Part shown: positions 3,190-62,551 of the stretch, one piece after another
Layout: each line of letters begins with the position of its first letter
How positions within the stretch are numbered: the stretch's first letter is position 1
IMG/VR virus record: IMGVR_UViG_3300020464_000002
Location: 1-64,000 of that record
Strand: one strand, 5' to 3'
DNA: 64,000 bases
Source of the DNA: a virus
Notes under the pieces: generated by a model
Databases searched by the model: none
Seen by the model: the letters and a program-made list of their open reading frames with translations, nothing else
What the model was told of the DNA's origin: nothing
Position numbers and translations under genes: made by a program

Positions 3190-3264
3190 TGGAACACCCC
3201 TAAAAGCCCCGCCTAATAACTTGTCAAAATAGCCTTATCACTCATTCATTGATAAGGCTTTTTT
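3190..3264 (+). promoter_or_regulatory. late-promoter unit A (box, -10, hairpin)
   Basis: Box TGGAACACCCCTAAAAG 3190-3206. TGn plus CAAAAT 3225-3230. IR GCCTTATC/GATAAGGC 3232-3239/3251-3258, then T6. ATG 3265. Confidence 0.6.
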
Positions 3265-3885
3265 ATGAAAACAAACACCCCAAGCCTAGCGGCTTACCGC
3301 AAGCAATACCAAACGATGAAGTCGTTAGGTGCTGCTATGTTGGCGTGTAACGCTGTATTGGTTATTGATGGTTACGAAAACCTATACATGCTGATACAAA
3401 ACTTCCAGCGCCCAATTTGCAGCCACCATGACCCCGCTGATGTGGACTTAGCACGCGGCTTACAGGCGCACGCCGCTGGTACGCGTAAAACCAACTTTGA
3501 GAGCCAATGGACGTTTATTGAAACCGAAAGCGGCGTTATTTCACAGTTTGCAGACGACCTAGTAAACATTCATGACGGCATTATCCCGCTGGCACGCGTT
3601 TATGACGGTTTTGTTGATGACGGCGATAACATCAAAGGCTTGCGTGAATATGAGCTGATCGATTCCGCGATCACGTTTGCTGATGGCGGCGGTGAGATCG
3701 ATTCAGCCAGCCGCAGTCAGATCTTACAAGTACAAGCAAGTTGCCGTTACAACTTCTTTGGTAATGACAGCAAGCTAGGCTCATCAAGCACAGACGTTTT
3801 CGCTAACACCTTAAACAGCGCACTAGGCGCATTTGGCGGCCTAACCGCTACATCCAGTTCAGACAACGTTACCATTTTTGGTTAA
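3265..3885 (+). CDS. late structural protein, function unknown
   Basis: 206-aa ORF directly behind late-promoter unit A, in the baseplate/tail block. Confidence 0.5.
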   Translation: MKTNTPSLAAYRKQYQTMKSLGAAMLACNAVLVIDGYENLYMLIQNFQRPICSHHDPADVDLARGLQAHAAGTRKTNFESQWTFIETESGVISQFADDLVNIHDGIIPLARVYDGFVDDGDNIKGLREYELIDSAITFADGGGEIDSASRSQILQVQASCRYNFFGNDSKLGSSSTDVFANTLNSALGAFGGLTATSSSDNVTIFG

Positions 3886-3894
3886 GGCGGCCTT

Positions 3895-4389
3895 GTGAGC
3901 GTTAATGATACAGACGTGAATCACGTCATTGGCACGATCGAGGATGCAGCCAATGATTTGTATGAGGAGCTTTTAACGACTGGTTATTCTTTATTGCTCA
4001 GCGATGTGGTTAAGGTTTTTATTATCAATACCAAAAAATACGCGGGGTGGTCAGGCGAGTTGCAGCATTGCCCCAAGAGCGATGAATCATGCGTAAAACC
4101 GTTGTTGGAGATCGATCAAAACACGGTTTTGGGGGTGGATGACTGGGTGATTGTTGAGCCAGTTATCCGCGCTCATTGCGATCTCGTTCAGGCGCGGCGT
4201 ATGGAGGGGGCGCAGAATTTAGGCGTTCAACCCGCTGGCATGTCGTCAAGCGAGGCACGCCAGCTATACGATGATGCGGTAAGGACAATGCAAAAAGAGG
4301 CGTTTCAATTCCAGCCGTTTAGTATTGAGATACCTAAAGACGACCCGCGCTACCCTGAGACTAGCCCTTGGCTGGTATGGCAATCATAA
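3895..4389 (+). CDS. hypothetical protein
   Basis: 164-aa ORF with GTG start preceded by AAGGCGG. Followed by GGCCGCC/GGCGGCC hairpin about 4395-4418. Confidence 0.45.
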   Translation: MSVNDTDVNHVIGTIEDAANDLYEELLTTGYSLLLSDVVKVFIINTKKYAGWSGELQHCPKSDESCVKPLLEIDQNTVLGVDDWVIVEPVIRAHCDLVQARRMEGAQNLGVQPAGMSSSEARQLYDDAVRTMQKEAFQFQPFSIEIPKDDPRYPETSPWLVWQS

Positions 4390-4450
4390 GACATGGCCGC
4401 CGATCTACTGGCGGCCACACCCAAATAACCATTACTTTTGAGACAAACGC

Positions 4451-5344
4451 GTGAATATTCAGCTTGAAGATGGTAGTCAAATTGGCGGCGGTAATCTAAT
4501 CAGCGCAATCTATCGAACCGACCTTGTTCCAGTGCCAGTGACATTAGAGCTGGTGGTAAAGGCTGATGATAGATTGCGTGATTTATTTACCATTGGTCGC
4601 AAGATGACCACACCAAAAGGCGTGCCGCTGGTAATTGTTAAGTCGCAAGTGATCAATGAGCAGTCAATCAAGGCTGGCCGCCGTGTTGCGGCTATTCATG
4701 TGATCGCTATTATCGGTGGCTGTGAGGCACTGCTAGGCGTGACCAATAAGGCGGTGCATTTAGAGAACACCAATTTTAATGAAGTTTACCGCGCACTTGG
4801 CGCAAAGGTGAGAATCCAGCGTGACGTTAAACTTGCCAGCTTTACTTGCTTAAAAGGGCAGTTACCAACCGCATCGATTGCATTGGCATTGCAGCGTGAG
4901 GCCGCCGTGGTATGCAACACCGAAAGCGGCTTATCTATCATACGCCTAAATGAGCTGATGGGCGGTGATGCGATCATGTTTGATAAAACCGCCGTCCAGT
5001 GGATCGACAATCCAAACGCCGTCAGGCATAGCAATGTCAACTACTTATCGATCGATGACAATGGATCGGACATTTTAGGCACGGCAAGGGCTGAGCGCTC
5101 AATACAGTATTATCCCCGCGCTGATACCCGCGAATTACAGAACCTACGCCGCATTTTAATCACTAAAGCCACGATCACCCGCCAGCTGGATGAGCGCTTG
5201 GACGCTGGCGCGATCATATCGGTTGATGATCAATCATTAGTCACGCTCACTGGTGTTCACAAGTACGAAACAGGCGCTATGGGTGGTCGCTCAGTGGCCG
5301 CAACTAAGGCATGGCTGGCACAGGTCGAGGACGCTAAACAATGA
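4451..5344 (+). CDS. baseplate hub-like protein (gpD / Mu P-like?), tentative
   Basis: 297-aa ORF immediately upstream of and overlapping the V-like spike gene (ATGA overlap). Call is based on position only. Confidence 0.3.
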   Translation: MNIQLEDGSQIGGGNLISAIYRTDLVPVPVTLELVVKADDRLRDLFTIGRKMTTPKGVPLVIVKSQVINEQSIKAGRRVAAIHVIAIIGGCEALLGVTNKAVHLENTNFNEVYRALGAKVRIQRDVKLASFTCLKGQLPTASIALALQREAAVVCNTESGLSIIRLNELMGGDAIMFDKTAVQWIDNPNAVRHSNVNYLSIDDNGSDILGTARAERSIQYYPRADTRELQNLRRILITKATITRQLDERLDAGAIISVDDQSLVTLTGVHKYETGAMGGRSVAATKAWLAQVEDAKQ

Positions 5345-5997: not shown

Positions 5998-6009
5998 TCA
6001 GGCGGCAAT

Positions 6010-8210: not shown

Positions 8211-8287
8211 CGGAACACCCCTAAACAGCACCCCTTAAAACTTGTCAGAATAACCGTATCTTATTAATTATTCATAGGTACGGCGAA
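8211..8287 (+). promoter_or_regulatory. late-promoter unit B
   Basis: Box CGGAACACCCCTAAAC 8211-8226. TGn plus CAGAAT 8246-8251. IR CCGTATCT/AGGTACGG 8254-8261/8276-8283 (one G-T pair). ATG 8288. Shares AACTTGTCA with units A and J. Confidence 0.6.
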
Positions 8288-11200
8288 ATGGCATACACCA
8301 AACAGAATAAAGCGCACAGCAATCACTATATCACCAAGCCTGACGGCTCAACCGCCAGTCGGTACAGCCGTTATGAGACTGGACGTATCACAGGCCGCTA
8401 TCGTGAAATACCAGCCGTTCTAGCGGACAGCACAGGCTTTGACAGCCTAGGCTTTGATAGCAGCGTTGGCAGCGTTGATGACCGCTGGCACGTTGTTAAC
8501 GTTTTTGACTCAGTAAATACTTATATTGATAGCATTGCCGTTGGCGGCGCGATGGACGGCAACCACGCCTTGCAAATCGCCAAGTCACAGCTAGACAGCT
8601 TGGGCGGCACTACTTGCCAGCTAATCACCAACAACGCCATGCAGTTTGACGGTATGGATCACGACCACGCATGGTCGATTGATGCCATTAATAAGCTGAT
8701 GGATAACCCCTCGCAAAACAAGAGCTACCTACCAGTAATCACCGCGCCTGAATTGGTCGTTGAGGCTGAGCGCGTCACGTTTGATAGCGTGCAGTGGGAT
8801 AGTAACAACAACCTAATCAGCCATGGCGGTAAAGACAGCCGCTTGTATCTTGATCTTACCCGCGCTGATACCCGAAACGAGCTTGTCACTGAGTTTGACT
8901 TGGCAGACGCGTTATTTGACATGGACGCACAGGAAGCGGGTTTTGATGCGTTGATGGACACAAAAAGTCGCTTACCTCTACTAAAAGATCGTTTATTTAA
9001 AGCGCTTAGCCAAGCAGGTGATGAAAGTCTATCTGTAACCAATGTAACGCAAACCAAAGAATTTAAGCGCCAAGGTGTGATTAATATCGCGTTTGTCTTT
9101 GATTTGTCAGACGGCCAAAAGCTGTCTATTTGGTTCCACAAGCCGCTAGAGTCCTCATCCAAACTACTACCAAGCGACTACATGGTGTCGTGGAAGTGGA
9201 TGTTGAATAAGCGCGATGTAACCGCCGCATTATCACCAAAACACGGCGATAACGTGCAGTTGCCAGCGCTGGCACGCCGTATCATGCGTGTGGCCGCTAA
9301 GAACTCTAAACGCTTTAAAGCCGCGCAAGCACGCAAGGCCAAGGTTGAGCAAGAGTTATTGGATGCAGAACAAGCAATCGAAGATAAAAAAGCCACGATC
9401 AGTCAATTAGACGCTGATATTGCTGATATTAACGCTAAAATTGATGCTGCTATGAAAGCGCCCGACTCAGACACAGTTAATGAGTCAGGCTTGCAAGCTG
9501 ACGAGCCAGCGGACGCGCCAGTAAGTACGACAGCGGCGACCGCCATCCCCGTAAGAGAAGCGCTTGAATACGTCAAAGCGAATATCTTTGAAGGCAAAGA
9601 TGATCAAGTCTTAATGTATGTCACCGATAGAAGTACCGGTGAGATCAAAGAAACTAAGCTAGTGAAGGCGTCGAGCAAATCAGCGCAAACGCGATGGTCA
9701 AACAATTTTGTCAATGATGATACGACTGGCTCAGTCTATAACCAGTCAATCCCTAAAACCAATAGCAACGCCGCCACCTTACTTGAAGACCTAGGGTACA
9801 AGATTAATTATGCCGATCCTGAAGGTTTCATTGATGATCAATTCAAAGTTGGTGACGCTTACCGCTTTATTGATCCTAACGACGCTAATGACACGGGCAG
9901 TGTCTTAGAGTTTAAGAGCTGGGAGGGTATCAACAGAGGTAACGACGAGCCGATACTATCATTTTCATCGTTTAGCGGCGCAAGTGGCAAGAGCTTTAAG
10001 CTTAGCGAGATGCAAAAACTTGTTGCTGACGGTGCGGCGGTACTGGTAACAGACTCAGAAGCGCAAGAAGCCAAGGATTTTGAAACCGAGCAGCCGGTAT
10101 CGGTGTATGTGAACAGTAAAGGCCGTGAATTGGTAACAGTGACGTACAGTCATGGTCAATACAATCTTAAAGGCAGTGGCTTTATGAATGGCGCTGACGA
10201 TGAAGCGGGCGTGTTAAAGATTTTGCGATCTATAAGAAAAGACAATAAATCCATGAAGTTGAAAGAGGGTAAAGAATTTTTCCCCGCGGGCGATGACGGT
10301 AAAGAATATCCGCCGCTTGAGTATGACGCCGAAAGCAAAACAGTTACCGCTTACATGAATAGTAAGAAAAAAGATAGCTGGACGGCCATACCTAAAGACG
10401 ATGGCGGCTTTACCGTGTACGCCGATAACGCCCAAACTCGCGCCTACAGAACCAGCGCACCGAAAATGTTTGATAACAGCGAAGATCTCATTGCCACTTA
10501 CCCCGCGTTTAGAGGTATCGACGCATTATTGGCCAAGCATAGCACTAGCAGCGATGACGTAGACTACGCGGAGATCGATGAAAGCGAGTACCCTGAATTA
10601 TTCCTAGATCGCAACAGCGATAAGCTAAATATTTTAGGTATCGGCGATGACAATATTCATGTAGGCAACCAAAACCACGGCGAGGACAGCTATAGCGATC
10701 TATACCATATCGACACCGGTATCTTTAAAGATATGACACTAAACTTTACGGATGCCGTGTGTAAGGTAGTCGATGCTTCCATCGATATAGGTGCTGATGC
10801 GGTTGTCGGTGACTATACAGCAACAGCTTATCAAGATTCAATGTTCGATGACCTTAACAGCAAATCCAACCCCACTTACGGTATCACCGTGCAGATCTCA
10901 AAAGATGGTGCTTACTTGCGCGCCGAAGTCGATGCTTATGGTGAAGCTAAGATCTTAAAAGGCATGAGTGGCCAAGACGTTGTTGCAACCGTAAAACACG
11001 TATTTACCGATAATACCGGCGAATACAAAACAGCGATTGAAAACGCATTAGACGCACAGGCGGATCAAGATATGGACGATAAAAAAGCAGATGACGATAT
11101 GAGTACAACAGACACGCATGATGTACCTAACACAGCTGAGACAGCGCCAGCAGCCAATATTAGCAACTCAGGCATTCCCGACATAACCAATGCAGATAAA

Positions 11201-13335: not shown

Positions 13336-13337
13336 TC

Positions 13338-14088: not shown

Positions 14089-14274
14089 ATGGTGGAACAC
14101 GGCAAAATGAGCTTGCCCGAAGCCCTTAAAATAGGATTGTCTTTTATAAAGCTGTATCGAGACTCACCAAGTTTTGAGCGCGTATCAAAAACCATTGAAA
14201 ACGAGCGTATTTACAAGTCAGGCGTTATAGATCGTTTAAACGCAATCATACAGGTAAGCCAAGCGCGGCGTTAA
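14089..14274 (+). CDS. small hypothetical protein
   Basis: In-frame ATG 14089 lies just after the upstream stop at 14075. The track ORF 13990-14274 would overlap by 86 nt. Confidence 0.35.
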   Translation: MVEHGKMSLPEALKIGLSFIKLYRDSPSFERVSKTIENERIYKSGVIDRLNAIIQVSQARR

Positions 14275-18321: not shown

Positions 18322-18346
18322 CCCCGCCAAAAATGGCGGGGTTTTT
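18322..18346 (+). terminator. intrinsic terminator
   Basis: CCCCGCC aaaaat GGCGGGG followed by TTTTT. Confidence 0.75.
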
Positions 18347-18349
18347 CAT

Positions 18350-18426
18350 TGGAACAGTGTAAAAGTTGCTAGCCGTTTACTTGTCATAATTGGTTATTGC
18401 TTTTTATAACCAATCGGACAGCATTT
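18350..18426 (+). promoter_or_regulatory. late-promoter unit J
   Basis: Box TGGAACAGTGTAAAAG 18350-18365. TGn plus CATAAT 18385-18390. IR ATTGGTTAT/ATAACCAAT 18389-18397/18406-18414. ATG 18427. Confidence 0.6.
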
Positions 18427-21400
18427 ATGAAAACAGATCAAACGCCGTCAGGCACTAAAGCCAAGTTTAAAAACATTGCCGACCTACAAGCCGCGCTTGC
18501 CAAGTTGCAAGGCGCAACCAACACAAAAGACCGACTAGCCGCCACACAAGGCGTTGTCGATGTTTTGAAAAGAATTGGATCGCTGAGATCGATAACCATT
18601 CAAGAGGCCAAAAACGGCAAACTTGATGACGATCATGACACGCCAGCACCAGCCGCCGAAAAAACGCCAACCAGTGATATTGTTGATCGTACTGGCATGG
18701 TTGAGCTGGCGGGAACCAGTAAGCGCCAAGCAGCCAATAATAAAGCGGTCGAACTTTTGGCCAAAATCAAGGCCGAGGGCTTAACCCGCGATGATCTATC
18801 ATCTGAGCAGATCGAAACGCTGGCGGCCTATACTGGCAGCGGCGGCGGCCTGATCTCAAACAAGGGTAAACGCGGTAGCGCTTACGAGTATTACACCCCC
18901 AAAGCCGTTGCCTCAAAAATGTGGGAATTGGCCTCAGAAATGGGCTTTACTGGCGGCAAGGTACTAGATCCGAGCGCTGGTACTGGCGTTTTTGCGGCCA
19001 CCAGCCCTGAAAGTGCCGTTATTGACAGTATCGAGCTTGACGAAGTATCAGGCGGCATTGCCTCGATCTTAAACGATGGGGATCGCAGCAATACGGTTGT
19101 ATCGTCTTTTGAGAAGCGCAACGAGCTGATCGCAGATGATAGTCTCGATATGGTAATGACAAACGTGCCTTTTGGCGACAATAAAACACGCGGCGAGCAC
19201 AAAATGGACGATGACGCGTACCAAAATGAGAGCTTAGAGACTTACTTTATCTTGCGTTCGCTTGAAAAGATTAAGCACGGCGGCCTTGCCGTATTTATCA
19301 CGCCAACGTCTGTGATCTCAGGCAAAAAAGGCGACAAGGAACGCTTGCGCAAATTGACCAGCCTAAAAGCTGAGCTGCTGGGCGCGTACCGCTTACCAAA
19401 CAAAGTATTTGAACAGACAGGCGCGGACGTAATGACGGATATCATTGTTTATCGCAAGCATAGCCGTGAAGCGACCGATCAAATCAACGCGCTGTATGAA
19501 GCTGGCGATATGGACACGTTGGCCAAAACCAAGGTCATGTGGGATGAATATATCAGCGGCGCTTATTTTAAAAACCCAATCCATAAAGCTAAATTCATGT
19601 TGGGTAACGAAGTGCAAGTACCAAGCCGTTTTAACCCCGAAGAAATGGTAACGGCGCTAAGCAACCCCAAACCAACGCCTGAGATCATGAAAGACATTAA
19701 AAAGTTTGGCGGTAGTCGTATTGATTGGGAAGCACTGGGCGCAGCTGAGGCCGCTTATATCGAATACAACAACGGTGACGTGATATTCCAAAACGGCAAG
19801 CAATTAGAGTACCAAGACGGCCGCTGGCACGTTATGGCCGCCGAGCCGACCGACAGTGACCGTGAAATGCAGAAGGCACTTGCTAACATGGGCAGTGCGA
19901 TCGAAATGGTTGTAGCTGGCATGACGTTTGACATGATGGATCGTGTGAACAGCTACACCTTAACGACTGGCCAAGCCGATTTAATCCCGCGTGCTGCTAG
20001 ATCTTTGTTTAATCGAACCCTCGTTGTCGCCCCTAAAATGCGTGCCGCCGCGTGGAATTGCGTTATCGCAGCACAAGCGATAAAAGACGTGATCGCCGAG
20101 CAAGATTATGGCTATGACTTCATGACCAACGAGCCGGCCTTGACCAGCTTTATGAAAACCGCCTTTTTGGACGGCAAAAATACCAAGCTGACCAAAGAAC
20201 CAAAGCAAGACTTTAATTTTGTCAAACTCTACTACGATAATGGCAAGTATAACGCGGTATGGCGCGGCCAAATTGATACCGAGGTCGAAGTTAAGGACGA
20301 GGCGCGATCTTATACAAGCCTTATTGCACGTATGCAGTATGACAATAAGAGCCTATATTTAAGCCGTGAGCAGTTGGCCAAAGTTAACCCCGATACTGAC
20401 CCATTAACCGATAATGAGTGGTTTATCAATCATGACGGCAGCCAAGTTATCGCCGCTAGTGACTTTTTGACTGGCAGCTTATCGAATTGTTTGGCCAAGA
20501 TTGACGAGCAGATCAAACAAGCGACCGACAGCAAGATCATTGCCAAGCTAGAACAGCAAAAACTATTTGCGACTGAAAACGTAACACGTATCAACTTGCA
20601 AAGCGTGGACTTTGACTTGCGCAGCCCACTAATCAGCGCCGAGGACAAAGTACGCTTTTTAAAGCAGTCAGTGCACAAAGACGCGTATATCTCGTTTGAT
20701 GAGTACGGCAAGGGCACGCCTGATATTGACGTAAAAGGCGGCAATCTAAGGGATGAAGAAAAGCTGTATAACCGTATCGGTGACTGGTTGGCTAAGGGAA
20801 CCGTGACCACTGGCGGCGTGACACTTAGCAGAATGACCGAGCGTGAAGCGCTGGACTGGATGAGCGAGCAAATTAACGTTGCTAACGTCAAATTTAGCAG
20901 CTGGGTTAAAGCCAACGACAAGCTAATGGCCAGCCTTGAGCGCACCATAAACCATAACGACAACCTATTTTTTAGCCAAAACAGTGATGAATCACCAGTC
21001 GAAATCGCTGGCATGAACCCTCAACTCAAGTTGCATGGCTATCAAAACGCGTTTGTGCGCAGCCAAGGCCGACATTTTGGCGGGATTAACGGCATGGGCG
21101 TTGGACTTGGTAAGACGTTTTCGTCATTGTCCAGCACGCAACATGCGCATAATATTGGCGCTAAGAAAAAAACTATTTTTGTTGTGCCAAATAGCGTGCT
21201 GTCAAACTGGCGTAAAGAGGTCGATTTTGCCTATACCAGCACTGATGACTGTTTGTTTGTTGGCTTGCGTGAAAAGGGCGACCAATTCCGCGTCTATTCC
21301 AACAAGTATGATGAAGATCTACTAAAAGCGGTCGATAGCAAGTACCGTAAGATTTTTATGACTTATGAAGCGTTTAAGCGTATTAGATTGAAAGATGAGA

Positions 21401-46260: not shown

Positions 46261-47190
46261 ATGTCAAAAAGAACAGATCCAATCACCTATAACCTAGCAG
46301 ATCGCGGCCGCAAGCATGTTGGCGTTGATCGATCGGACATGAATATTCAATCAATGATTGAGCGTATCAACGCGCCTGATGTTCAAGAGCTGGTGGCCAG
46401 CGGCGATCTATACGGCTATTACGGCCATGAAGTACGCGCACGTTTTGGTATGAACCCGCCTGATGTTTGGTTGAACCCCAAAACTGGCGAAAACATACGC
46501 ATCGAGCCAGCCCTACGCACAATCGAGCTGACCGCCGACAGTGACGGCAATGTCACGTCAAGACATGAGTTTTTAGACACCGATACTGGTAAATACTCAG
46601 AACGTCTTTACACCAACAAGGCTGGCGGGTTTAGCAGTGCTGTTATGCGTAAGCGCGGCGCGTCAGGCAAGTTTGATATCACAGGTTTTTACGGCTTTGA
46701 TTATGTGCGCCAGCCTAATTACAACACCAATCGCGGTAATGGCATGTTCGATAGCTTGTTTTGGCTTGATGAAGAAGAAGCTGAAATGGCGTTTGATAGC
46801 TTGGACAACCTAACCCCGCAGCAAGCCAGCCACAAGGCCGCGCTTGAAGCCGCCATTTTGCACCAGTACGACAGCATTGCCACCGCTAATGAAGCGGACG
46901 TGATGATCGGTCATTACCAAAATGAGTTAATGCGATCGCAAGACGAGCAGATCAGCCGCCAAGAGAAGTTGGAGCGCCTACGCCAGCGCCGCCATGATCG
47001 CAAACTAGAGGTTTTTGACAGTCTGATTTGTCCGTCAGTGCCGTTTGATGAGGCTGTGGCGCAGTGGGATAGTTTCAACGCGCAGGGCACAAGTGATCTT
47101 GACCTACGCACGACAGGCGACACCAAAAAAGCCAAGGCTGATCAAGAGCGCCACCGCCGCGAACGCACCCGCATTTTTAAAGGCCGCTAA
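46261..47190 (+). CDS. possible prohead protease/scaffold-type protein
   Basis: 309-aa ORF. The N-terminal half has YGYYGHEVR, GGFSSAV and FDYVRQPN patterns reminiscent of prohead protease families. C-terminal coiled-coil R/E-rich tail. Confidence 0.3.
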   Translation: MSKRTDPITYNLADRGRKHVGVDRSDMNIQSMIERINAPDVQELVASGDLYGYYGHEVRARFGMNPPDVWLNPKTGENIRIEPALRTIELTADSDGNVTSRHEFLDTDTGKYSERLYTNKAGGFSSAVMRKRGASGKFDITGFYGFDYVRQPNYNTNRGNGMFDSLFWLDEEEAEMAFDSLDNLTPQQASHKAALEAAILHQYDSIATANEADVMIGHYQNELMRSQDEQISRQEKLERLRQRRHDRKLEVFDSLICPSVPFDEAVAQWDSFNAQGTSDLDLRTTGDTKKAKADQERHRRERTRIFKGR

Positions 47191-50741: not shown

Positions 50742-50817
50742 TGGAACACGTCTAATCATGCCAGCTGGCACGCGGTAAAATTATCCATACTCATTAATTG
50801 AATAGCGAATAATAATT
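50742..50817 (+). promoter_or_regulatory. late-promoter unit E
   Basis: TGGAACACGTCTAAT 50742-50756. TAAAAT 50776-50781. No clear IR. ATG 50818. Confidence 0.5.
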
Positions 50818-53181
50818 ATGGCGGCTAATACCAAATCTATTATTTTTAAGATCACCGAGGCTGGCAAGCAAGCTGCCCTTGATGCTCAAGAAAATGCAGC
50901 ACAAATAAAAATCAATCTAACACAAGTGGCCGTTGGTACAGGTAAGCGCATTATTACCGGTAATGAAACGGCGTTACTATCCGAAGTTAAGAGATCTGCT
51001 ATTGTCTCAGGCGATATTGAGGTAAACAGTAATACTTTACGCTTTACCAGCCCGATGAATGGCAGCGCTAAAACTGATGTTTACGAGGTGGGGTTGTTCA
51101 CTGATGCCGGCGTATTGTTTGCTGTTGCCTCATCGACTGATAACCCGCTATTTAGCTTGCATCCTGACATTACTTTTGTGATTGGCTTTGGCTTATCTTT
51201 GCAAGACGTGGCAGCCGATAGCGTGACGGTCACAACTGATCCCAATGGGGCGCTGGCAATAGTCATCATGGAGCAGCATTTAGCCGCGCCTGATCCGCAT
51301 CCGCAATATCTTAATAAGGATCGTTTTCAGTTTGCCATGCGTGCCCTATATCCTATCGGTTATCAATATCATTCACACGAAGCGGTAAACCCTAAGCCTA
51401 TCTTTGATGATATTTTAGGAGTCGATACGGCTTGGCGGCGTATCACCGGTAAGATCATAATTGCCTCAGATCCTAACGATCCGTTTATCAATGATCATAG
51501 TATCGTCTTAGGTCAGCGCGGTATGACTGATCTTGCTAGCAGTGGTCAGCGTCCGCATGTCTATCCATTGCAGACAACGCACTTATTTGAGCGTTATGAC
51601 CCTAACTCAAACATCGATACTGTATGGAATGTCAGAGCAGACAAAAACTCTATTGGCGAGGGAGGCAATGTCCGATTTACCGTGACTGCCAATAATCTGC
51701 CGGATGGTCAGTCGCTAGATTGGACGGTTAAAGAGGGGGTGCTCGATAGCGCCAATAATAATATCACCAGTCCTGAGAAAACCGATCAAGGCCAAGTCAC
51801 GTTGACAAATGGTCAAGCGATTATAAATTACACTACCACAGAGGATGATAACGAAGTAGAGCCGCAAAAACACGTCCGCCTAACCGTGGGCGCACCGGCT
51901 AACTTGTCAATCAATGTACCGATCAATGATCTAGGTAACACTGAATCGATTGTCCATATTGCCCAAAGCACAACCAACGGCATACAGCTTGATGAATACT
52001 ACAAACAGCAAAGCGGTAGCTACCCAGCTGCTAGCGATAAGATTCGCTTTATTGTTGATGAAGGCGTGGATATTATCGCACCTGACACGCAAACGCCCGC
52101 ATTGGTAGAGGGCGCGAATTGGCCTACAGGTAATACCCCTATCGTAGAAAATCATGGGCGCATCTTAGGGCGTGGCGGTGACGGTGGACGTAGTGCAGAG
52201 TATCAAGGCGGTCAATTTGTTAATGAATTACCGAAGTCTGAAAATGATGAAAATTGGGTAATGCCGGAGAATGGAAAAAATGGCGGCGTGGCCGTTTATT
52301 CATCAAAACAACCTATCATCATAGAAAACTACAACCTTGTCGCGGGCGGCGGCGGCGGCGGAGCTGGCGGCGGTGCAGTAACCTATAGGATTGACAGTCA
52401 GTACAATGATGCAGGTGCTTATGAAATGGTAGGTGGGAGTGGTTCAGGCGGCGGCGCACCGCTTGGCAAAAGATCGCCTAACGCTAACACTATCGAGAGC
52501 TATTACAAGTATAGTGCAGCAGAGGGTTATACGGTTTTTGATTATGAAAACCTATCATCCCCGATACGCTTCATGATAGTACAGAAAGAAGATGGGAGGT
52601 GCGATTTTTCCCCTTGGTGGAGTGGTGGTGGTGACACTATCAGCAAGATTATCCCCCAAAAAGACCCCACACTTAAAGACTCATTTCCTCGTTTTTTTAC
52701 ACCGTACTACGAAAGCAACGGAGTGGATTATAAGCTCATCTCATACGAGGTAAATGAAGATATCGCAGATCAATCGTTACCTTGGGTACAGGGTAATGGA
52801 GGTAGGGTTTACCATAACCATAGCGTCAAGCTCAGACAATCAACAGACGGCACGATAACTAGCGGCGGTGATTACGGTTATGGGGGTATCGGGATTGTAG
52901 GCGCAAACGTAAGATCAGATCTTGTTATGCCTAATTATTTTGAAGCGTTAGATTTTAGCCAGTATCACGGAGGATCAGGCGGGGATTTAGGTAGCAGTGG
53001 TGGTACAGGCGCAAATATTACTAAGCCAACAATACGAAAATTGTTGGGTGACAGGCTTCTTGGGGATTATGCAAAGGTGCATGAAATAACACCCGCAGCA
53101 AAAGGCGGCTTAGCCGGTTACGTCAAAGAAGGTAATGTCACCATTACAAACTACGGAAGCGGAATAACCAAGGGGCGTTAA
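50818..53181 (+). CDS. tail fibre protein (tail-collar/DUF3751-type N-terminus, glycine-rich distal part)
   Basis: N-terminus FKITEAGKQAALDAQ...TQVAVGTGK...EVGLFTDAGVLFAV matches the P2 gpH-type collar domain. Gly runs GGGGGGAGGG, GGSGSGGG and GGSGGDLGSSGGTG. Confidence 0.65.
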   Translation: MAANTKSIIFKITEAGKQAALDAQENAAQIKINLTQVAVGTGKRIITGNETALLSEVKRSAIVSGDIEVNSNTLRFTSPMNGSAKTDVYEVGLFTDAGVLFAVASSTDNPLFSLHPDITFVIGFGLSLQDVAADSVTVTTDPNGALAIVIMEQHLAAPDPHPQYLNKDRFQFAMRALYPIGYQYHSHEAVNPKPIFDDILGVDTAWRRITGKIIIASDPNDPFINDHSIVLGQRGMTDLASSGQRPHVYPLQTTHLFERYDPNSNIDTVWNVRADKNSIGEGGNVRFTVTANNLPDGQSLDWTVKEGVLDSANNNITSPEKTDQGQVTLTNGQAIINYTTTEDDNEVEPQKHVRLTVGAPANLSINVPINDLGNTESIVHIAQSTTNGIQLDEYYKQQSGSYPAASDKIRFIVDEGVDIIAPDTQTPALVEGANWPTGNTPIVENHGRILGRGGDGGRSAEYQGGQFVNELPKSENDENWVMPENGKNGGVAVYSSKQPIIIENYNLVAGGGGGGAGGGAVTYRIDSQYNDAGAYEMVGGSGSGGGAPLGKRSPNANTIESYYKYSAAEGYTVFDYENLSSPIRFMIVQKEDGRCDFSPWWSGGGDTISKIIPQKDPTLKDSFPRFFTPYYESNGVDYKLISYEVNEDIADQSLPWVQGNGGRVYHNHSVKLRQSTDGTITSGGDYGYGGIGIVGANVRSDLVMPNYFEALDFSQYHGGSGGDLGSSGGTGANITKPTIRKLLGDRLLGDYAKVHEITPAAKGGLAGYVKEGNVTITNYGSGITKGR

Positions 53182-55226: not shown

Positions 55227-55251
55227 AAATCAATATACCAATCACTAAATA

Positions 55252-55274
55252 AGCCGCCTAATAAGCGGCTTTTT
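55252..55274 (+). terminator. intrinsic terminator
   Basis: AGCCGC ctaataa GCGGCT followed by TTTT. Confidence 0.65.
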
Positions 55275-55279: not shown

Positions 55280-55378
55280 TGGAACACCCCTAAAACGCCC
55301 ATTTGAAACGCTATTAACATTAATCCTATCAGTTTAGATGTTCTATCACTATCCAACCGACCATATAGGATTAACCCC
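55280..55378 (+). promoter_or_regulatory. late-promoter unit F (capsid gene)
   Basis: TGGAACACCCCTAAAACG 55280-55297. TAACAT 55315-55320. IR AATCCTAT/ATAGGATT 55322-55329/55365-55372. ATG 55379. Confidence 0.6.
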
Positions 55379-57193
55379 ATGGATAAGAAGCAAGCAGCAG
55401 TATTTGACGCAGCAGCACATAAAGAAGTACAGGCAGTACGCCGCCTGATGCGTTCTTTAGAAAACAAGGGCAATAGCAGCGATCAAGTCGCCGCGTTTGA
55501 CTCGATGCTGGCAAGCAACCCCCAAGGCCGTGAGGCAGCAATGAGCGAGCTACCCGAGTCGCTACAGCGTATCTTAAACAGTAAATACATGGCAGAAGAC
55601 AAGCAAGCCGTTTTTGATGGTTTAGAAGACGGTATTATTGAATTTAAACGCCGTAATGGTGGTGAAATGCCGTCAGAGTACGCGATTGCCGCCGCATTGA
55701 CCACAGCCGCCGCGCCGTTTGGTGGTGCTGAAAAATACGATAGCAACTCAGAGCCTACGTTTGATAGCCTATCACTAGGTCATCATGAAGCGTTGTCAGT
55801 CGTGCCAGCCGCAACTCAAGTCATTATCGCGTACGGTATCTCTAACTCACTACCACTGCTATCGATGTTACCTAACCCAATGGGTAGCAACGAATTGCCG
55901 ATCGTTTATGGTACAGCTGTTGCCGGCTTAGACATGGGCGTTATGCGCCGTGGTGAATTGATGGACGGCGACAAAGCGGGTATGCCATACCTAGAAAACC
56001 GTCATACATTGACCATGGAAAAGACCGCCGCTGGCACGTTCACGCTAGAATCTCATGTCGCTTATACCGCTGAAAAGCGCGGCGATAAAACTGTTAAATT
56101 TACCGTTGATAAAACCTCGTCACTTGCGCCGTTCTTAGGCGGCCGTGTTGTCGTTATGATCAAGGGCATTGAGATCGCCAACGACAAGCACCGTGATCAC
56201 CCGACTAAGGGTGGCCGTAGTGTTCTACAGCCGCTAGATCCAGTTGATATCGGTACAGATACTTATATCGTAACAACCGCTGTGGCTGATCTTGACACGT
56301 ACACTATCGAAGTGAATTTTGATACGACAAACGGCGTTGATCCTGAGCCTGATGACGTGAGCATTGAGCTTATCTTTGACTACGAGCGTAAAGACAGCAA
56401 CGGCAACAATATTTTGCGTGAACCATCGGTAGATATGGAGTTTTTACACCGTTCTATCTATGCAGCCCCTCATCGTTCGCGTTCTACCGCAACAATCGAT
56501 GCGATCACTCAGCTATCGAATGAGCTTGGTATCAACTGGTACGGAGCCGCGCAGACAATCGCTATGCAGCGTTACTACTTTGAGCAGACAGGCCGCTTAT
56601 TGCGCACCGCGTTTAATATGTGTCTATCGGATCAAAACCCAAAAACTGGCCGCGTGGTGACGTTTGACTTTAACAAGACTGGTGTGTCACCGACCAACCT
56701 AGCGGATGCGTTTTCTAACGTCAATATTACGTTAGGGCTGGCGCGTACTCGCTTGTCTCGCGCTATTAACACAGCGATTGCAGGTTACGATCTGTATGTA
56801 TCAGATCGCGGCGCGGCGTTCTTCTCAGGCATGGGCGGCCAAAACTACGAATCAACAGGCGTACCGTTTGGTGATCAGTATTCCGTCTACCGTATTGGCC
56901 GTCTTAAAAACAACGGTGCAAACGTCTATTACGTTCCATCAAGCATGGGCGTATTTGATGAAGAAACGGACACCACCACAGCACACGCATTGTTAGTGCC
57001 ACGCGCTATCACGCCAGCACAAGCGCCGTTTGTTGGCTTTACCGCAGTACCGCCAATGGTGCTAACGTCAAATGCCACCGCGTTTGAAAAAGACGTGGCG
57101 ATCTACAGCCGTATGGCTGGCGAGGTTAACCCGCTACCTCGTTATCGCAATCAGTGCATGTTGATTGAAATGATCAACTTGCCAGCGCTTTAA
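55379..57193 (+). CDS. putative major capsid protein (604 aa, possibly with a cleavable N-terminal domain)
   Basis: Has its own box promoter and is followed by a strong terminator. Size and position are capsid-like. No motif-level proof. Confidence 0.45.
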   Translation: MDKKQAAVFDAAAHKEVQAVRRLMRSLENKGNSSDQVAAFDSMLASNPQGREAAMSELPESLQRILNSKYMAEDKQAVFDGLEDGIIEFKRRNGGEMPSEYAIAAALTTAAAPFGGAEKYDSNSEPTFDSLSLGHHEALSVVPAATQVIIAYGISNSLPLLSMLPNPMGSNELPIVYGTAVAGLDMGVMRRGELMDGDKAGMPYLENRHTLTMEKTAAGTFTLESHVAYTAEKRGDKTVKFTVDKTSSLAPFLGGRVVVMIKGIEIANDKHRDHPTKGGRSVLQPLDPVDIGTDTYIVTTAVADLDTYTIEVNFDTTNGVDPEPDDVSIELIFDYERKDSNGNNILREPSVDMEFLHRSIYAAPHRSRSTATIDAITQLSNELGINWYGAAQTIAMQRYYFEQTGRLLRTAFNMCLSDQNPKTGRVVTFDFNKTGVSPTNLADAFSNVNITLGLARTRLSRAINTAIAGYDLYVSDRGAAFFSGMGGQNYESTGVPFGDQYSVYRIGRLKNNGANVYYVPSSMGVFDEETDTTTAHALLVPRAITPAQAPFVGFTAVPPMVLTSNATAFEKDVAIYSRMAGEVNPLPRYRNQCMLIEMINLPAL

Positions 57194-58036: not shown

Positions 58037-58059
58037 CTACCTAACACAAGGGATTTGCT

Positions 58060-59148: not shown

Positions 59149-59157
59149 GGGTGATTC

Positions 59158-60333: not shown

Positions 60334-60406
60334 TGGAACACCCTAAAACCCTAACCTCGACAAAGCCTATACTGAGTCATAAACCACTCAGTATAGGCAT
60401 TTTATT
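60334..60406 (+). promoter_or_regulatory. late-promoter unit G
   Basis: TGGAACACCCTAAAAC 60334-60349. TATACT 60368-60373 lies inside IR GCCTATACTGAGT/ACTCAGTATAGGC 60365-60377/60386-60398, then ATTTTATT. ATG 60407. Confidence 0.6.
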
Positions 60407-60754
60407 ATGATCGAGAGTAAAACACTAGGTAGCGCCGCTGGCGTGCAGTATCAGGGCGTTATCGACAAGACAGAAACAAACAGCTTGCCGTCATTGGCCA
60501 ATGGCGTGGTCATTGGCAAGTTTAAGCGCGGCCGTATGGACAAGCCGTTTAAGGTGACTGCCGTCAATTATCAGGCATTGCTAGGGCGTGATCCGATGAA
60601 TCCAAGCTACTTAGCAGTAGAGGATGCCTTTAGGCGCGGTATTAGCGAGGTGAGCGTATTGCGCGTTGGCCAAACGGGCGGCGCGTCAGTTGTGGAGGTC
60701 GAAAAATACAGCTATCTTGATTTATCGCTACCCTTGCCGCCAGCCGTCGCTTAA
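60407..60754 (+). CDS. anchor-domain paralogue 2 (short, 115 aa; anchor module only)
   Basis: Same N-terminal module, then 25 unrelated residues and a stop. May be a truncated copy. Confidence 0.45.
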   Translation: MIESKTLGSAAGVQYQGVIDKTETNSLPSLANGVVIGKFKRGRMDKPFKVTAVNYQALLGRDPMNPSYLAVEDAFRRGISEVSVLRVGQTGGASVVEVEKYSYLDLSLPLPPAVA

Positions 60755-60804: not shown

Positions 60805-61527
60805 ATGGCTAACGAATGGTTTTATGCAGCATGTGCAAAAATGCAGGTTAATAACAGTGAGCCTTTCATACTATCTTTTGAAGATACTGCTTTTAGAGAT
60901 ATGGCTGAACAAATACCCAACGTAGATTTTAACGATTTATGTATTTTTGCTTTAATTTCGCCATTTTTCACCCCCAATGTAACAAATATGGATCAAAATT
61001 GGTCGGCACGCTTGCCGCGCTTAAATTTCACTGCCATTCCTGAAGATATGGTCATGTTAGGCCGGCAGGTTAATAGCCTATCTAACCCTTATCCCGAAAA
61101 CCGCACTGGTCTTGTTTGTTTTACTAAAGAATCGTTTAAGGCGCTCATGATGCAAGAGCCGCCCACTACGGACATGACGCCACAGGAGTGGCAAGACTTG
61201 GTAATTAGCACACCATTTGATGAGCTACAATCTCTACTAGAAACGTTTGGATCATCACCTTTCAAGATTAATGGTACGAGATCAACGCTCAGAATAATGC
61301 CATGTAGTCGAGAAGAAATAAAGAGCCTTGATCCGTACGGCGGGCTTGATGCGCCGCGTGTAGATATTTTTAACCTTGTTAAAGAGCGTTTAACCAATAC
61401 GGTTAAACAGCTTGACGATAAGGGTTTAGAGCCAGCCAAATACTATGCAGGCGGCAATTATATCGAGTTTGTTGCGGAGTGTTCGATAAGTATTTCTGAG
61501 ACTATGCCTACTAACCCACAGTTATGA
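60805..61527 (+). CDS. companion protein 2
   Basis: 240-aa ORF, paralogous to 59158-60294. Confidence 0.5.
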   Translation: MANEWFYAACAKMQVNNSEPFILSFEDTAFRDMAEQIPNVDFNDLCIFALISPFFTPNVTNMDQNWSARLPRLNFTAIPEDMVMLGRQVNSLSNPYPENRTGLVCFTKESFKALMMQEPPTTDMTPQEWQDLVISTPFDELQSLLETFGSSPFKINGTRSTLRIMPCSREEIKSLDPYGGLDAPRVDIFNLVKERLTNTVKQLDDKGLEPAKYYAGGNYIEFVAECSISISETMPTNPQL

Positions 61528-61582
61528 TAAGGATTAGCTTGACAGGTGAGTAGCTGGTGTCGAGCGAACCCGATTCAAGCTA

Positions 61583-61655
61583 TGGAACACTGCTAAAGCC
61601 ACAAGCCAAGCCAAGCCTATACTGAGCTATTACTACTCAGTATAGGCTTTTTATT
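61583..61655 (+). promoter_or_regulatory. late-promoter unit H
   Basis: TGGAACACTGCTAAAG 61583-61598. TATACT 61618-61623 lies inside IR GCCTATACTGAG/CTCAGTATAGGC 61615-61626/61636-61647, then a T-run. ATG 61656. Confidence 0.6.
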
Positions 61656-62468
61656 ATGATCAACAGCAAAACACTAGGATCGGCCGCCGGTATTCAATAC
61701 CAAGGCGTTATCGATAAGACAGAAACAAACAGCTTACCGTTATTGGCCAATGGTGTGATCATTGGCCGGTTTAAGCGTGGGCGTATGGATAAACCATTTA
61801 AAGTGACTGCTAATAACTACCAATCGTTGCTAGGCCGCGATCCGTCTAATCCTAGCTACTTAGCGGTTGAGGACGCGTTTAAGCGTGGTATCAGCGAGGT
61901 TAGTATTTTGCGCGTTGGCGGGCGGGCAGCTGGCGATGGTTTAGGCGATGGTTTAGGCGATGGAGGATTGGGCGGCGGCAGTGGTTGGAGTGATATTGAT
62001 TTCGTTGGATCGGTGGGCGGTATGTCGATTGGGTACGAGATGGGTTATCTTTATATATTTCAATACCAAATTAATGATGAAACGCCGGTTATTGTAGAAG
62101 TACCCGCCAACCGGACTGAATTGGTGGGTACTAACCTTGGGATGCTTGTCGTTGACTTCACCCCCAATGTTTTTAAAGATTCAGCAAGCGGTGATCCGTA
62201 TGAGTATTGGATGGAATGGGAGGTTCAAGAAAACTCTAATTGGATTACTCTAAAAGGTCTAAGATCCGGATATACCGCGCCGCAAATGGATTCAATGCTG
62301 GAAAATAATATACTTAGAATAACAGAGGTTTCGGAAGAGGAGCGCTACTCTATATCCATTAACAATCCTAATCTAACAACCTATGATATAGGGCTAAATA
62401 ATAACACTGCTGAAATGGGTGTGAGGTCAGAAATTAGGGTTGTAGCGCCGGATCTAGGTGCTGTGTAA
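61656..62468 (+). CDS. anchor-domain paralogue 3 with GDGLG linker and an unrelated C-terminal domain
   Basis: Same N-terminal module, then GDGLGDGLGDGGLGGGSG, then a domain of about 170 aa. Confidence 0.55.
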   Translation: MINSKTLGSAAGIQYQGVIDKTETNSLPLLANGVIIGRFKRGRMDKPFKVTANNYQSLLGRDPSNPSYLAVEDAFKRGISEVSILRVGGRAAGDGLGDGLGDGGLGGGSGWSDIDFVGSVGGMSIGYEMGYLYIFQYQINDETPVIVEVPANRTELVGTNLGMLVVDFTPNVFKDSASGDPYEYWMEWEVQENSNWITLKGLRSGYTAPQMDSMLENNILRITEVSEEERYSISINNPNLTTYDIGLNNNTAEMGVRSEIRVVAPDLGAV

Positions 62469-62477
62469 ATAAGGCAT

Positions 62478-62551
62478 TGGAACACCCCTAAAGGCCTAAA
62501 GCAAACCTTGCCTATACTGAGTTGATACCAACACAGTATAGGCATTTTATT
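62478..62551 (+). promoter_or_regulatory. late-promoter unit I
   Basis: TGGAACACCCCTAAAG 62478-62493. TATACT 62513-62518 lies inside IR GCCTATACTG/CAGTATAGGC 62510-62519/62534-62543, then ATTTTATT. ATG 62552. Confidence 0.6.

Follow-up and report, generated by a model that had tools for sequence, protein, structure and literature searches.

Putative activator-dependent late promoters with an upstream GGAACAC box, most of them set in hairpins, in a temperate Psychrobacter myophage

In phage P1, many late promoters are scattered ahead of morphogenesis, packaging, and antirestriction operons. These promoters have a TANNNT -10 hexamer and lack a -35 element; a short conserved sequence, AAGTGACTT, lies 4 bp ahead of the -10 hexamer, with its centre at about -22. 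They depend on Lpa with the assistance of host SspA, and at LPsit and LPdar a hairpin overlaps the -10 hexamer and pairs with the Shine-Dalgarno (SD) sequence. Class II sigma-70 promoters (lambda cI at PRM, Mu Mor/C, and the C-proteins of restriction-modification systems) also combine a good -10 hexamer with a missing -35 element, and the site of the factor, a dimer bound to a dyad-symmetric sequence, overlaps or abuts the -35 region with its centre near -42. GGAAC is the classical -35 core of ECF sigma promoters, which have a spacer of 16–17 bp. In phage T4, genes e, soc, 49, and I-TevI have a hairpin that blocks the SD or the start codon and whose 5' strand contains the late promoter; the RNA initiated upstream is translationally silent, whereas the late-promoter RNA, which lacks the 5' strand, is translated (PMC3014915).

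We analyzed a window of 64,000 nucleotides (positions 1–64,000 of the IMG/VR record IMGVR_UViG_3300020464_000002), which represents the nearly complete genome (~65.7 kb) of a temperate Psychrobacter myophage. Its immunity region is lambdoid (CI/Cro/CII and integrase), and its morphogenesis genes are distant relatives of those of P1, with homologues of BplA, Prt, Pro, PacB, gp25, Tub, DarA, DarB, and Ulx encoded in the window. An earlier sequence-only reading had listed ten copies of a late box with an invariant GGAACAC. All ten copies were present and intergenic, but the 18350 copy reads GGAACAG, the copy placed at 43097 starts at 43098 and its CATAAT at 43133 (both coordinates having been off by one), and an eleventh copy (box 14093, TAAAAT 14127) had been overlooked. 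A twelfth copy is expected just beyond the window; an equivalent is found in a relative (L001:16198), and the source contig is ~65.7 kb long. The features are summarized in the table.

Table. Late promoter units, associated hairpins and terminators, and candidate regulator genes in the window.
Feature	Coordinates	Strand	Elements
Late promoter unit, tail-tube-like operon (3265-8206)	3190..3267	+	box TGGAACACCCCTAAA 3190-3204; TGt-CAAAAT 3225-3230; ATG 3265
Hairpin of 3190 unit	3231-3259	+	AGCCTTATCA/TGATAAGGCT, then T-run; z -4.4
Late promoter unit, DarA-like 1394-aa gene	8211..8290	+	box CGGAACACCCCTAAA; TGt-CAGAAT 8246-8251; ATG 8288
Hairpin of 8211 unit		+	CCGTATCT/ATAGGTACGG, SD-sequestering; z -3.3
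Eleventh copy	14093..14132	+	box TGGAACACGGCAAAA; TAAAAT 14127-14132
Intrinsic terminator directly upstream of 18350 box	18322..18346	+	CCCCGCC...GGCGGGG and T-run
Late promoter unit, DarB-like 2228-aa gene	18350..18429	+	box TGGAACAGTGTAAAA (variant G, core position 7); TGt-CATAAT 18385-18390; ATG 18427
Hairpin of 18350 unit		+	ATTGGTTAT/ATAACCAAT
Own sigma-70-like promoter of 41282-41980	41205-41232		after terminator 41156-41183
Candidate activator, 232 aa	41282..41980	+	Xre/cI-type HTH, then two long helices
Partner, 314 aa, translationally coupled	41973..42917	+	small N-terminal three-helix domain, disordered linker, long coiled coils
Late promoter, first after regulator pair; 787-aa tape-measure/tail-lysozyme-like gene	43098..43174	+	box AGGAACACCAAGGCC; TGc-CATAAT 43133-43138; ATG 43172; weak hairpin
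Late promoter unit, Pro-like/terminase operon	46183..46263	+	box AGGAACACCCCACCA; TAAACT 46218-46223; ATG 46261
Hairpin of 46183 unit		+	GCCCCTTAAA.../...TTTAAGGGGC enclosing TAAACT, then T-run; z -6.0; compensatory pairs
Late promoter unit, tail-fibre operon	50742..50820	+	box TGGAACACGTCTAAT; TAAAAT 50776-50781; ATG 50818; stable hairpin absent
Intrinsic terminator directly upstream of capsid-gene box	55251..55274	+	AAGCCGC...GCGGCTT and T-run
Late promoter unit, major-capsid-like gene	55280..55381	+	box TGGAACACCCCTAAA; TAACAT 55315-55320; ATG 55379
Hairpin of 55280 unit		+	long-range TTAATCCTAT/ATAGGATTAA, occludes SD; SD unpaired 0.07 vs 0.78
Late promoter unit, sheath-N-domain paralogue	60334..60409	+	box TGGAACACCCTAAAA; TATACT 60368-60373; ATG 60407
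Hairpin of 60334 unit		+	13-bp GCCTATACTGAGT/ACTCAGTATAGGC enclosing TATACT, then T-run; z -6.8
Late promoter unit, second sheath-N-domain paralogue	61583..61658	+	box TGGAACACTGCTAAA; TATACT 61618-61623 in hairpin, then T-run; z -5.8; ATG 61656
Late promoter unit, tail-sheath gene	62478..62554	+	box TGGAACACCCCTAAA; TATACT 62513-62518 in hairpin, then T-run; z -4.9; ATG 62552

The window contains GGAACAC 12 times, where 4.9 occurrences would be expected, and 11 of the 12 are on the + strand. The composite pattern GGAACA[C/G]-N26-27-nAnnnT had 11 matches on the + strand and none on the - strand, which agrees with the strict strand bias described before; 300 dinucleotide shuffles, counted on both strands, gave a mean of 1.07 and a maximum of 4. 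The virion genes appear to be split into at least 11, and probably 12, co-directional transcription units. The boxes had been proposed to define the whole late regulon: 11 operons are indeed preceded by a box, but gene 58060 has none and follows a terminator-like hairpin.

The box is kept in related phages, as the sequence-only reading had wanted checked. The same architecture was observed at 73 distinct sites from the window and related Psychrobacter phage contigs (58–94% capsid identity), ahead of orthologous genes at 58–94% protein identity. The conserved core is WGGAACACCC, an asymmetric element of 10 bp; the following CTAAA is weakly conserved among the relatives, and neither dyad symmetry around the box nor a second half-site was visible in the 73-site set. 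The isolated Acinetobacter phage vB_AbaM_ABMM1 (ABMM1) carries a shortened box, TGGAAC, with the same geometry, and the shortened form also occurs in prophages of Moraxella, Faucicola, Alkanindiges, and Acinetobacter. That GGAAC stays invariant from host to host could just as well indicate a conserved host component. The 14093 copy is positioned inside a small ORF (13990/14089-14274) or where that ORF begins, 181 nt from the next start codon, and is probably an internal promoter for the genes from 14274 onward. Its position corresponds to that of the ABMM1 holin promoter, and in a 91%-identical relative the box and hexamer are unchanged while the flanks differ.

The first G of the box was found at a fixed 33 or 34 nt from a hexamer with the consensus TAnA(A/C)T at all 73 sites, divergent relatives included. 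Position 4 of the hexamer is A in 66 of these sites and position 5 is exclusively A or C, neither of which was imposed by the search; the seventh base past the hexamer is A in 42. In the window, the hexamers begin at box position 35 or 36, where they had been placed (the 43098 site shifted by one). The extended TGn in four copies (3190, 8211, 18350, and 43098) and the box-to-ATG distances of 73–78 nt in nine copies and 99 nt at the capsid gene were also reproduced, as was the absence of a TTGACA-like hexamer 16–18 bp upstream of the -10 hexamer (best match at most 3/6 in ten sites and 4/6 in one). Because the first G is 33–34 bp upstream of the hexamer, WGGAACACCC would span approximately -47 to -38, with its centre near -42. 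Canonical terminators are located immediately upstream of the 18350 and 55280 boxes, so RNA must re-initiate downstream of them; the T-run ahead of the capsid-gene box is kept in all relatives. The strand and intergenic bias, the fixed spacing, the missing -35 element, and the upstream terminators are consistent with the earlier proposal of late promoters that depend on an activator or specificity factor, and it is from such sequence features that we infer the promoter function of the box units.

The sequence-only reading had located the hexamers correctly and had overlooked their embedding in hairpins. At most late operons, the -10 hexamer and the predicted start lie in the 5' arm of a hairpin and the SD in its 3' arm; the hairpins at 43098 and 50742 are weak or absent. 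For the read-through RNA, the mean dG was -16.1 kcal/mol and the median z was -3.1 (z < -2 at 40 of 67 sites); for the RNA from the predicted start, the mean dG was -3.0, a contrast partly inflated by the comparison of long with short RNA. The probability of the SD being unpaired was 0.22 in the read-through RNA and 0.56 in the predicted-start RNA. In 87 of 95 cases, the bases pairing with the GG of the SD lay no further downstream than +6, counted from the end of the hexamer. Stable hairpins were followed by a T-run in 24 of 50 cases, and two ortholog sets contained compensatory base-pair changes.

In regards to the regulator, two ORFs had been proposed, and 41282-41980 is conserved in the box-bearing relatives, whereas the zinc-finger ORF 40083-40724 is not. 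If generic matches to the CI repressor (26% identity) and to the integrase (25%) are set aside, the Psychrobacter phage and ABMM1 have just two early-region proteins in common, this HTH protein and its partner, whose ABMM1 homologues are gp68 and gp69. The partner gene directly follows the HTH gene wherever it was detected among the Moraxellaceae relatives (Faucicola, Moraxella, Alkanindiges, two Acinetobacter prophages, and one divergent Psychrobacter prophage), and in all Psychrobacter relatives examined the pair has its own promoter and lies directly upstream of the first late promoter. These phages are also syntenic overall, which partly confounds the co-occurrence of pair and box. The recognition-helix motif NR(I/M)SEIE(N/S)G is near-invariant across the HTH family, the remainder of the protein falling to ~30% identity, and this parallels the invariant GGAAC. 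A fold search with the predicted structure matched the HTH N-domain to Xre-type DNA-binding domains, including restriction-modification controller proteins and the N-domain of lambda cI from its solved complex with sigma region 4; controller proteins and lambda cI are activators that contact sigma. The structure models are moderate (pLDDT 74 and 69), and all matches obtained in the fold searches were generic HTH or coiled-coil ones. Dyads are the usual targets of Xre-type dimers and the box is asymmetric, which counts against the HTH assignment. Sigma, Q, Ogr, Mor, and Lpa domains were absent from all other ORFs tested. The Xre-HTH/coiled-coil protein is most likely the box-reading factor, and the partner probably acts together with it.

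On these sequence comparisons, we consider it likely that the GGAACAC sites are sigma-70-type late promoters requiring a factor bound at approximately -42, most likely the HTH pair, and that the hairpins insulate the units. Host RNA polymerase alone would be unable to use these promoters; a phage-encoded factor on the GGAAC element, in the position of a class II activator, would recruit or stabilize the polymerase and switch on all late units together. RNA reading in from upstream would fold the hairpin and be terminated and/or untranslatable, and the late-promoter RNA, lacking the anti-SD arm, would be free for translation. The hairpins would insulate each unit and prevent synthesis of the late proteins before the activator is present.

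Activator-dependent promoters of this kind could have another GGAAC reader, either a small or unrecognized phage protein or a redirected host protein, in the manner in which P1 Lpa works with host SspA. The HTH assignment draws solely on co-occurrence, on where the gene lies, and on the conserved recognition helix, and the box lacks dyad symmetry. Moreover, the HTH-containing operon is itself preceded by a box promoter in ABMM1 and in two Acinetobacter prophages, so the HTH protein could be a mere product of the regulon. The lack of any further shared early-region protein and the constant position of the pair before the first late promoter make a different reader unlikely in our judgment. We regard it as improbable that an alternative sigma (divergent phage-encoded or host ECF) reads the box as its -35-type element, with no activator working alongside sigma-70. 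Such a factor would fit the identity of GGAAC with the ECF core, and it would fit a box that is asymmetric and stays the same among many different hosts, as is more typical of sigma elements than of the sites of dimeric activators; the box lies a full helical turn further upstream than a normal -35 element, with a spacer of 27–28 bp instead of 17. However, a spacer of this length is outside what is known for sigma factors, the 73 sites show no conservation 16–17 bp downstream of GGAAC, and the hexamer itself resembles that of sigma-70 (TAnAAT), four window copies also having TGn. Furthermore, the ORFs tested yielded no Sigma70_r2, Sigma70_r4, or other sigma-like domain, and a host sigma alone would fail to give phage-specific late timing.

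The covarying hairpins, about half of them with T-runs, the co-directional units, and the G-poor spacer between box and hexamer would also suit a unit that works in RNA. One long late transcript would then carry the hairpins and T-runs as terminators, attenuators, or processing sites, and the box would be a loading site for an antitermination or processing factor, like nut or put. The distance from nAnnnT to the box is fixed, however, whereas the register of the hairpin moves by up to ~20 nt relative to both box and hexamer; the strong terminators before two boxes demand a downstream start; the 50742 site has a box and hexamer without a hairpin; and the unit matched no Rfam family. We find this explanation very improbable.

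Compared with the known systems, the sigma-70-type late promoters proposed here share with P1 the scattered distribution, the hexamer, the missing -35 element, the short upstream element, and the hairpin geometry of LPsit and LPdar. The earlier statement that the box is not recognizable as a signature of P1, P2, or Mu is supported: the P1 element is located elsewhere (about -22, against about -42 for WGGAACACCC), no Lpa homologue was detected among the ORFs tested, and no dyad surrounds the box. P1 also differs in its immunity, which is based on C1 with a plasmid prophage. ECF promoters share the upstream pentamer and its asymmetric recognition and differ in the spacer, the downstream element, and the sigma gene, which was not found among the ORFs tested. 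With class II promoters, the match lies in the position and in the Xre/cI-type fold of the candidate activator, although a single asymmetric element is conserved here and the long coiled-coil C-terminal half and the coupled coiled-coil partner of the candidate are unusual. The late-promoter set is undescribed, yet conceptually ordinary. The promoter-in-hairpin arrangement, which is the new point beyond the sequence-only reading, has the same geometry, as predicted here, as that of T4 gene e; in T4 it concerns a few genes with gp55-type TATAAATA promoters, whereas here it extends to most late operons of a temperate phage with another promoter class, and approximately half of the hairpins also resemble intrinsic terminators.

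We searched the window for GGAACAC and found 12 copies against 4.9 expected, 11 of which were on the + strand. The composite pattern GGAACA[C/G]-N26-27-nAnnnT occurred 11 times on the + strand and 0 times on the - strand; in 300 dinucleotide-preserving shuffles, with both strands pooled, the mean was 1.07 and the maximum was 4. The sequence-only reading had listed ten boxes from 3190 to 62478, and all ten were found in intergenic positions. The hexamers were present at box position 35 or 36, four copies carried a TGn extension as described, no TTGACA-like hexamer was found 16–18 bp upstream of the hexamers, and the reported box-to-ATG distances of 73–78 nt (99 nt for the capsid gene) were reproduced. 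The GGAACAC heptamer was not invariant as claimed, since the 18350 copy is GGAACAG. The copy placed at 43097 is real, but its box and hexamer coordinates were off by one, and an eleventh copy at 14093 had been missed. It maps to the beginning or the interior of a small ORF, and 181 nt separate it from the next start codon. The ~1.7 kb of the phage genome that falls outside the window is expected to hold a twelfth copy; a relative (L001) has the equivalent box between its sheath operon and the operon with which the window begins.

Contigs of relatives were fetched via three proteins (the capsid protein, the candidate regulator, and a tape-measure-like protein). The window and these contigs contained 73 distinct sites at which GGAACA[C/G] was followed by an nAnnnT hexamer, and conservation of the box in related phages was thereby borne out. 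The hexamer started 33 nt after the first G of the box in 23 sites and 34 nt after it in 50 sites. The columns left free by the search were also conserved, giving W-GGAACAC-CC(c) for the box and T-A-n-A-(A/C)-T for the hexamer, and the seventh base past the hexamer was mostly A. The CTAAA tail stressed in the sequence-only reading was weak outside the window. The spacer and the sequence upstream of the box showed no conservation in the 73-site profile, and neither a dyad nor a second half-site was seen, so that the element is asymmetric. Acinetobacter phage vB_AbaM_ABMM1 (ABMM1), the nearest isolate (syntenic, 27–54% protein identity), has TGGAAC(t/c) with equal spacing and equal downstream hairpins before its tail, head, sheath, tube, holin, and baseplate genes, and the same arrangement was found in prophages of Faucicola, Moraxella, Alkanindiges, and several Acinetobacter species. 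Xanthomonas phage Rb1, a high-GC phage with a distantly related capsid, was rejected as a carrier, as it has no recognisable box. Literature searches for the motif returned no description in the library covered, and the ABMM1 paper is silent on promoters. The box is thus confirmed and extended as a genuine signature of predicted late promoters that is conserved in a lineage of Moraxellaceae phages.

The window is a temperate phage genome. The early and immunity genes encode a CI-like repressor, Cro-like and CII (CP76) proteins, a Rha/antirepressor, an O-like replication protein, a Dam methylase, and an integrase. Psychrobacter is the annotated source of the homologous proteins, on which the host assignment is based. 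Megablast of the window against known phages gave no nucleotide similarity, and no isolated phage was alike at the DNA level; a 65,667-bp metagenomic contig encodes a protein identical to one of the window. Rfam and tRNA scans gave 0 matches. Distant homologues of the P1 morphogenesis and antirestriction proteins BplA, portal Prt, Pro, PacB, gp25, Tub, DarA, DarB, and Ulx were found. The DarA, DarB, and Ulx homologues are a packaged antirestriction system in an integrating phage with lambdoid immunity. The start of the integrase gene is flanked by a terminator and short direct repeats, which are probably arm-type integrase sites or attP.

Coordinates of the features discussed (window positions unless another sequence is named)
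Feature	Position	Remarks
Box with corrected coordinates	43098	hexamer at 43133
Eleventh box	14093	TGGAACACGGCAAAA; TAAAAT at 14127
HTH protein gene	41282-41980	232 aa
Partner gene	41973-42917	314 aa
Zinc-finger-like ORF	40083-40724	
Promoter region of the HTH protein gene	41150-41290	conserved in relatives L013-L015
CI-like repressor gene	33171-33869	- strand
CI/cro intergenic repeats	33920-33960	
Virion genes	43172-64000 and 1-25551	+ strand
DarA homologue (N-domain)	8288-12472	
DarB homologue (methylase + helicase)	18427-25113	2228 aa
Ulx homologue	25123-25551	
Direct repeats at integrase gene start	25715-25745, 26220-26335	AA(A/T)GAACGCAA and AACGAACA(T/C)(T/C)AACGAACA
Terminator-like hairpin before gene 58060	57990-58060	GGCGGCCATGCTGACGTTGTGGCCGTC + TTTTC
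Overlapping ORFs at the eleventh box	13299-14075 and 13990-14274	different frames; overlap part matches ABMM1 39988-40218 (tblastn)
Small ORF at the eleventh box	ATG at 14089	61 aa
Extra box of a relative	L001:16198	
Sheath-N-like copies of a relative	L003:13940-18963	
TGGAAC-type promoter, ABMM1 (L037)	L037:9516-9645	ABMM1 59516-59645; RusA-HTH operon
TGGAAC-type promoters, Acinetobacter relatives	L055:9214, L056:9215	
P1 (L018) LPsit	46560-46626	CTCGTAGAAT...ATTCTACGAGG
P1 (L018) LPdar	31180-31230	CCTCCT...AGGAGG

Canonical intrinsic terminators were located directly 5′ of the boxes at 18350 and 55280, so that transcripts of the genes that follow have to begin in the interval from box to ATG. 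Judged from their sequence, the units are by far best read as promoters in view of these terminators, the strand bias, and the constant spacing of box and hexamer. With a predicted start 7 nt past the hexamer, assumed for all sites, the core lies at about -47 to -38 with its centre near -42, which is one helical turn upstream of the usual place of the -35 hexamer and is where class II activators classically bind. Relative to this start, the units thus show the layout of class II activator-dependent sigma-70 promoters, in which a recognisable -10 goes with a weak -35 and the factor site has its centre near -41.5 on the same face of the helix. The activator of such promoters contacts sigma region 4 or the alpha N-terminal domain; the Xre-HTH protein described below is a candidate for this role.

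Several late loci deserve separate description. The cassette at 60334 and 61583 is duplicated and comprises the promoter, the leader hairpin, and the first ~87 codons, which form a domain like the sheath N-terminus (phrog_14345/phrog_1036). A third sheath-N-like paralogue at 58060 has no box, and one relative (L003) has more copies. Gene 58060 is preceded by a terminator-like hairpin, and neither a box nor a recognisable promoter for genes 58060–60294 was found directly ahead of it in the interval tabulated. At the 14093 box, two ORFs overlap in different frames, and the overlap part is conserved as protein in ABMM1; ORF 13990–14274 is either a programmed frameshift product or has a mis-called start. 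With the ATG at 14089 as its start, the small ORF here is about the size of ABMM1 gp37.

An inverted repeat, which the sequence-only reading had missed, lies between hexamer and ATG at almost every site. Its 3′ arm holds the Shine-Dalgarno sequence (SD; AAGG, TAGG, or AGGGG), and its 5′ arm overlaps or abuts the -10 hexamer. The arm sequences vary between sites, with compensatory changes inside ortholog groups. A single consensus fold for all paralogous leaders failed because the hairpin register differs between sites, but folding worked inside ortholog groups. We modelled read-through RNA, which enters from upstream, with 14 nt upstream of the hexamer for 67 sites and calculated z values against shuffles. 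The mean ΔG of this long RNA was -16.1 kcal/mol and the median z was -3.1 (z < -2 in 40/67), and the mean ΔG of RNA from the predicted start was -3.0. The unpaired probability of the SD was 0.22 in the long RNA versus 0.56 in the short RNA. The pairing partners of the SD-GG were at or before +6 from the hexamer end in 87/95 cases, and a T-run followed 24 of the 50 stable hairpins. The position of these partners and the folding contrast indicate that, given the predicted starts, the hairpin would form only in RNA from upstream. In read-through RNA, the formed hairpin would cause termination, prevent translation, or both; in RNA initiated at the predicted start, the SD would be free.

In regards to the regulator, the sequence-only reading had proposed two ORFs. 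The zinc-finger-like ORF is absent from the box-bearing close relatives, one locus having a 27% match, and was rejected, whereas the gene for the helix-turn-helix (HTH) protein is conserved in all Psychrobacter relatives with a retrievable region. The latter gene has its own sigma-70-like promoter, located after a terminator, and its end overlaps the start of the partner gene, which is conserved beside it. The HTH protein (gp68 in ABMM1) and the partner (gp69) are the only early-region proteins common to ABMM1, apart from generic CI repressor and integrase matches. Moreover, the two genes are adjacent in Moraxellaceae prophages wherever the partner was detected. The model of the HTH protein (pLDDT 74) has an Xre/cI-type HTH domain (residues 9–80) followed by two long helices, and Foldseek matched the HTH domain only (restriction-modification controller proteins, BldD, ImmR, and the lambda cI N-domain). 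The partner model has a small three-helix N-domain, a disordered linker, and long coiled coils, and its fold search gave no informative match. PDB sequence and fold searches with both candidates gave only generic Xre-HTH or coiled-coil matches.

The HTH family extends down to ~30% identity, and its recognition-helix motif NR(I/M)SEIE(N/S)G is essentially invariant. This parallels the invariant GGAAC and is circumstantial evidence that the HTH protein reads the box; covariation of box variants with HTH divergence was uninformative as a test because GGAAC is invariant throughout. For an Xre dimer, an asymmetric box would be atypical. The operon holding the HTH_3 regulator gene has a TGGAAC-type promoter ahead of it in ABMM1 and in two Acinetobacter prophages. 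This suggests positive autoregulation, but also fits the HTH protein as a mere late product. In the Psychrobacter phages, the HTH gene has a separate sigma-70-like promoter instead. The relatives have an inverted repeat, ACATTGC-N9-GCAATGT, just past the -10 of this promoter, which could be an operator and is unlike the CI/cro intergenic repeats. Control of this gene by CI was rejected, as the putative CI-cro operators (AAACTTATGGTTTA-like) were not seen at its promoter by eye.

We suggest, as a tentative and rather unlikely proposal, that a two-protein late-transcription module not recognised before and confined to Moraxellaceae phages reads GGAAC. In this module, the Xre-HTH/coiled-coil protein and its coupled coiled-coil partner would bind an asymmetric site one helical turn upstream of the -35 position and take the place of sigma region 4, unlike a classical dimeric activator. 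Such a module, combined with promoters set in terminator or anti-SD hairpins at nearly every late operon, would constitute a distinct genome-wide scheme by which temperate phages control their late genes. It is likewise doubtful, though conceivable, that a factor other than this pair reads the box. GGAAC is the -35 core of ECF sigma factors, and a GGAAC-type element is present here, so that recognition by an alternative sigma factor was considered. However, the spacer here is 27–28 bp, as against 16–17 bp to a conserved -10 of the CGT/TC type in ECF promoters, and nothing was conserved 16–17 bp downstream of GGAAC in the 73-site profile. The sole conserved downstream element is a sigma-70-like TAnAAT. 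Furthermore, Pfam, PHROGs, and NCBIfam scans of the early and unknown ORFs detected no sigma, Q, Ogr, or Mor domains, and hence no cognate sigma gene in the ORFs scanned; an alternative sigma factor is accordingly improbable. A purely RNA-level element is very improbable. Compared with a promoter read by the HTH protein and its partner, a different factor, an alternative sigma factor, and an RNA-level element each agree more poorly with the geometry or the gene content.

The analysis provides a map of predicted late transcription units and a testable regulator candidate for a lineage that comprises Psychrobacter, Acinetobacter, Moraxella, and related prophages and includes ABMM1, a temperate A. 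baumannii isolate under consideration for therapy. With the motif nGGAAC-(28–29 nt)-TAnAAT, late operons can be annotated and prophages of the same type detected. The hairpin design suggests how a temperate phage silences its virion and lysis genes against read-through transcription. Current concepts of phage gene regulation are unchanged by the finding.

The promoters resemble those of P1, which depend on Lpa and on host SspA, in having a multi-copy TANNNT -10 without a -35 hexamer ahead of late operons. In the extracted P1 sequences, the annotated late promoters have a conserved 9-bp AAGTGACTT ~4 bp upstream of the -10 (the "-22 region"), whereas the 73-site profile shows nothing conserved there. 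Tblastn of all window ORFs against the lpa-carrying P1 region gave no Lpa homologue at E < 1e-3, and no family match was found. A P1-type late promoter was therefore rejected, as the box and its position differ and an Lpa homologue was not found. The Ogr-Delta late promoters of P2, 186, and P4 have a TGT-N12-ACA dyad near -55 and a small Cys4 zinc-finger activator; in contrast, neither this dyad nor conserved bases occur upstream of the box, and the only zinc-finger-like ORF is missing from box-bearing relatives. In the Mor/C-type middle and late promoters of Mu, a dimer of the Mor/C family occupies a dyad-symmetric site at -33 to -51. The box has a similar position here but is asymmetric, and no Mor/C domain was found. 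As for the hairpins, the same mechanism has been documented for the T4 genes e, soc, 49, and I-TevI (PMC3014915). Shared with T4 are an SD or start codon within the 3′ strand of a stable conserved hairpin and a late promoter with its predicted start inside the 5′ strand, so that late RNA would lack that strand. In T4, where transcripts initiated upstream are translationally silent, a few genes are controlled in this way, whereas in the Psychrobacter phage the device would be generalised to the whole late regulon. At the P1 promoters LPsit and LPdar, too, an inverted repeat pairs the SD of the first gene with the -10/start region, as in the phage here. Dispersed factor-dependent late promoters without a -35 are a kind of system already well known. 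What is new is the form that it takes here, with regard to the box and where it lies, the candidate pair of regulators, and the systematic placing of promoters in hairpins.
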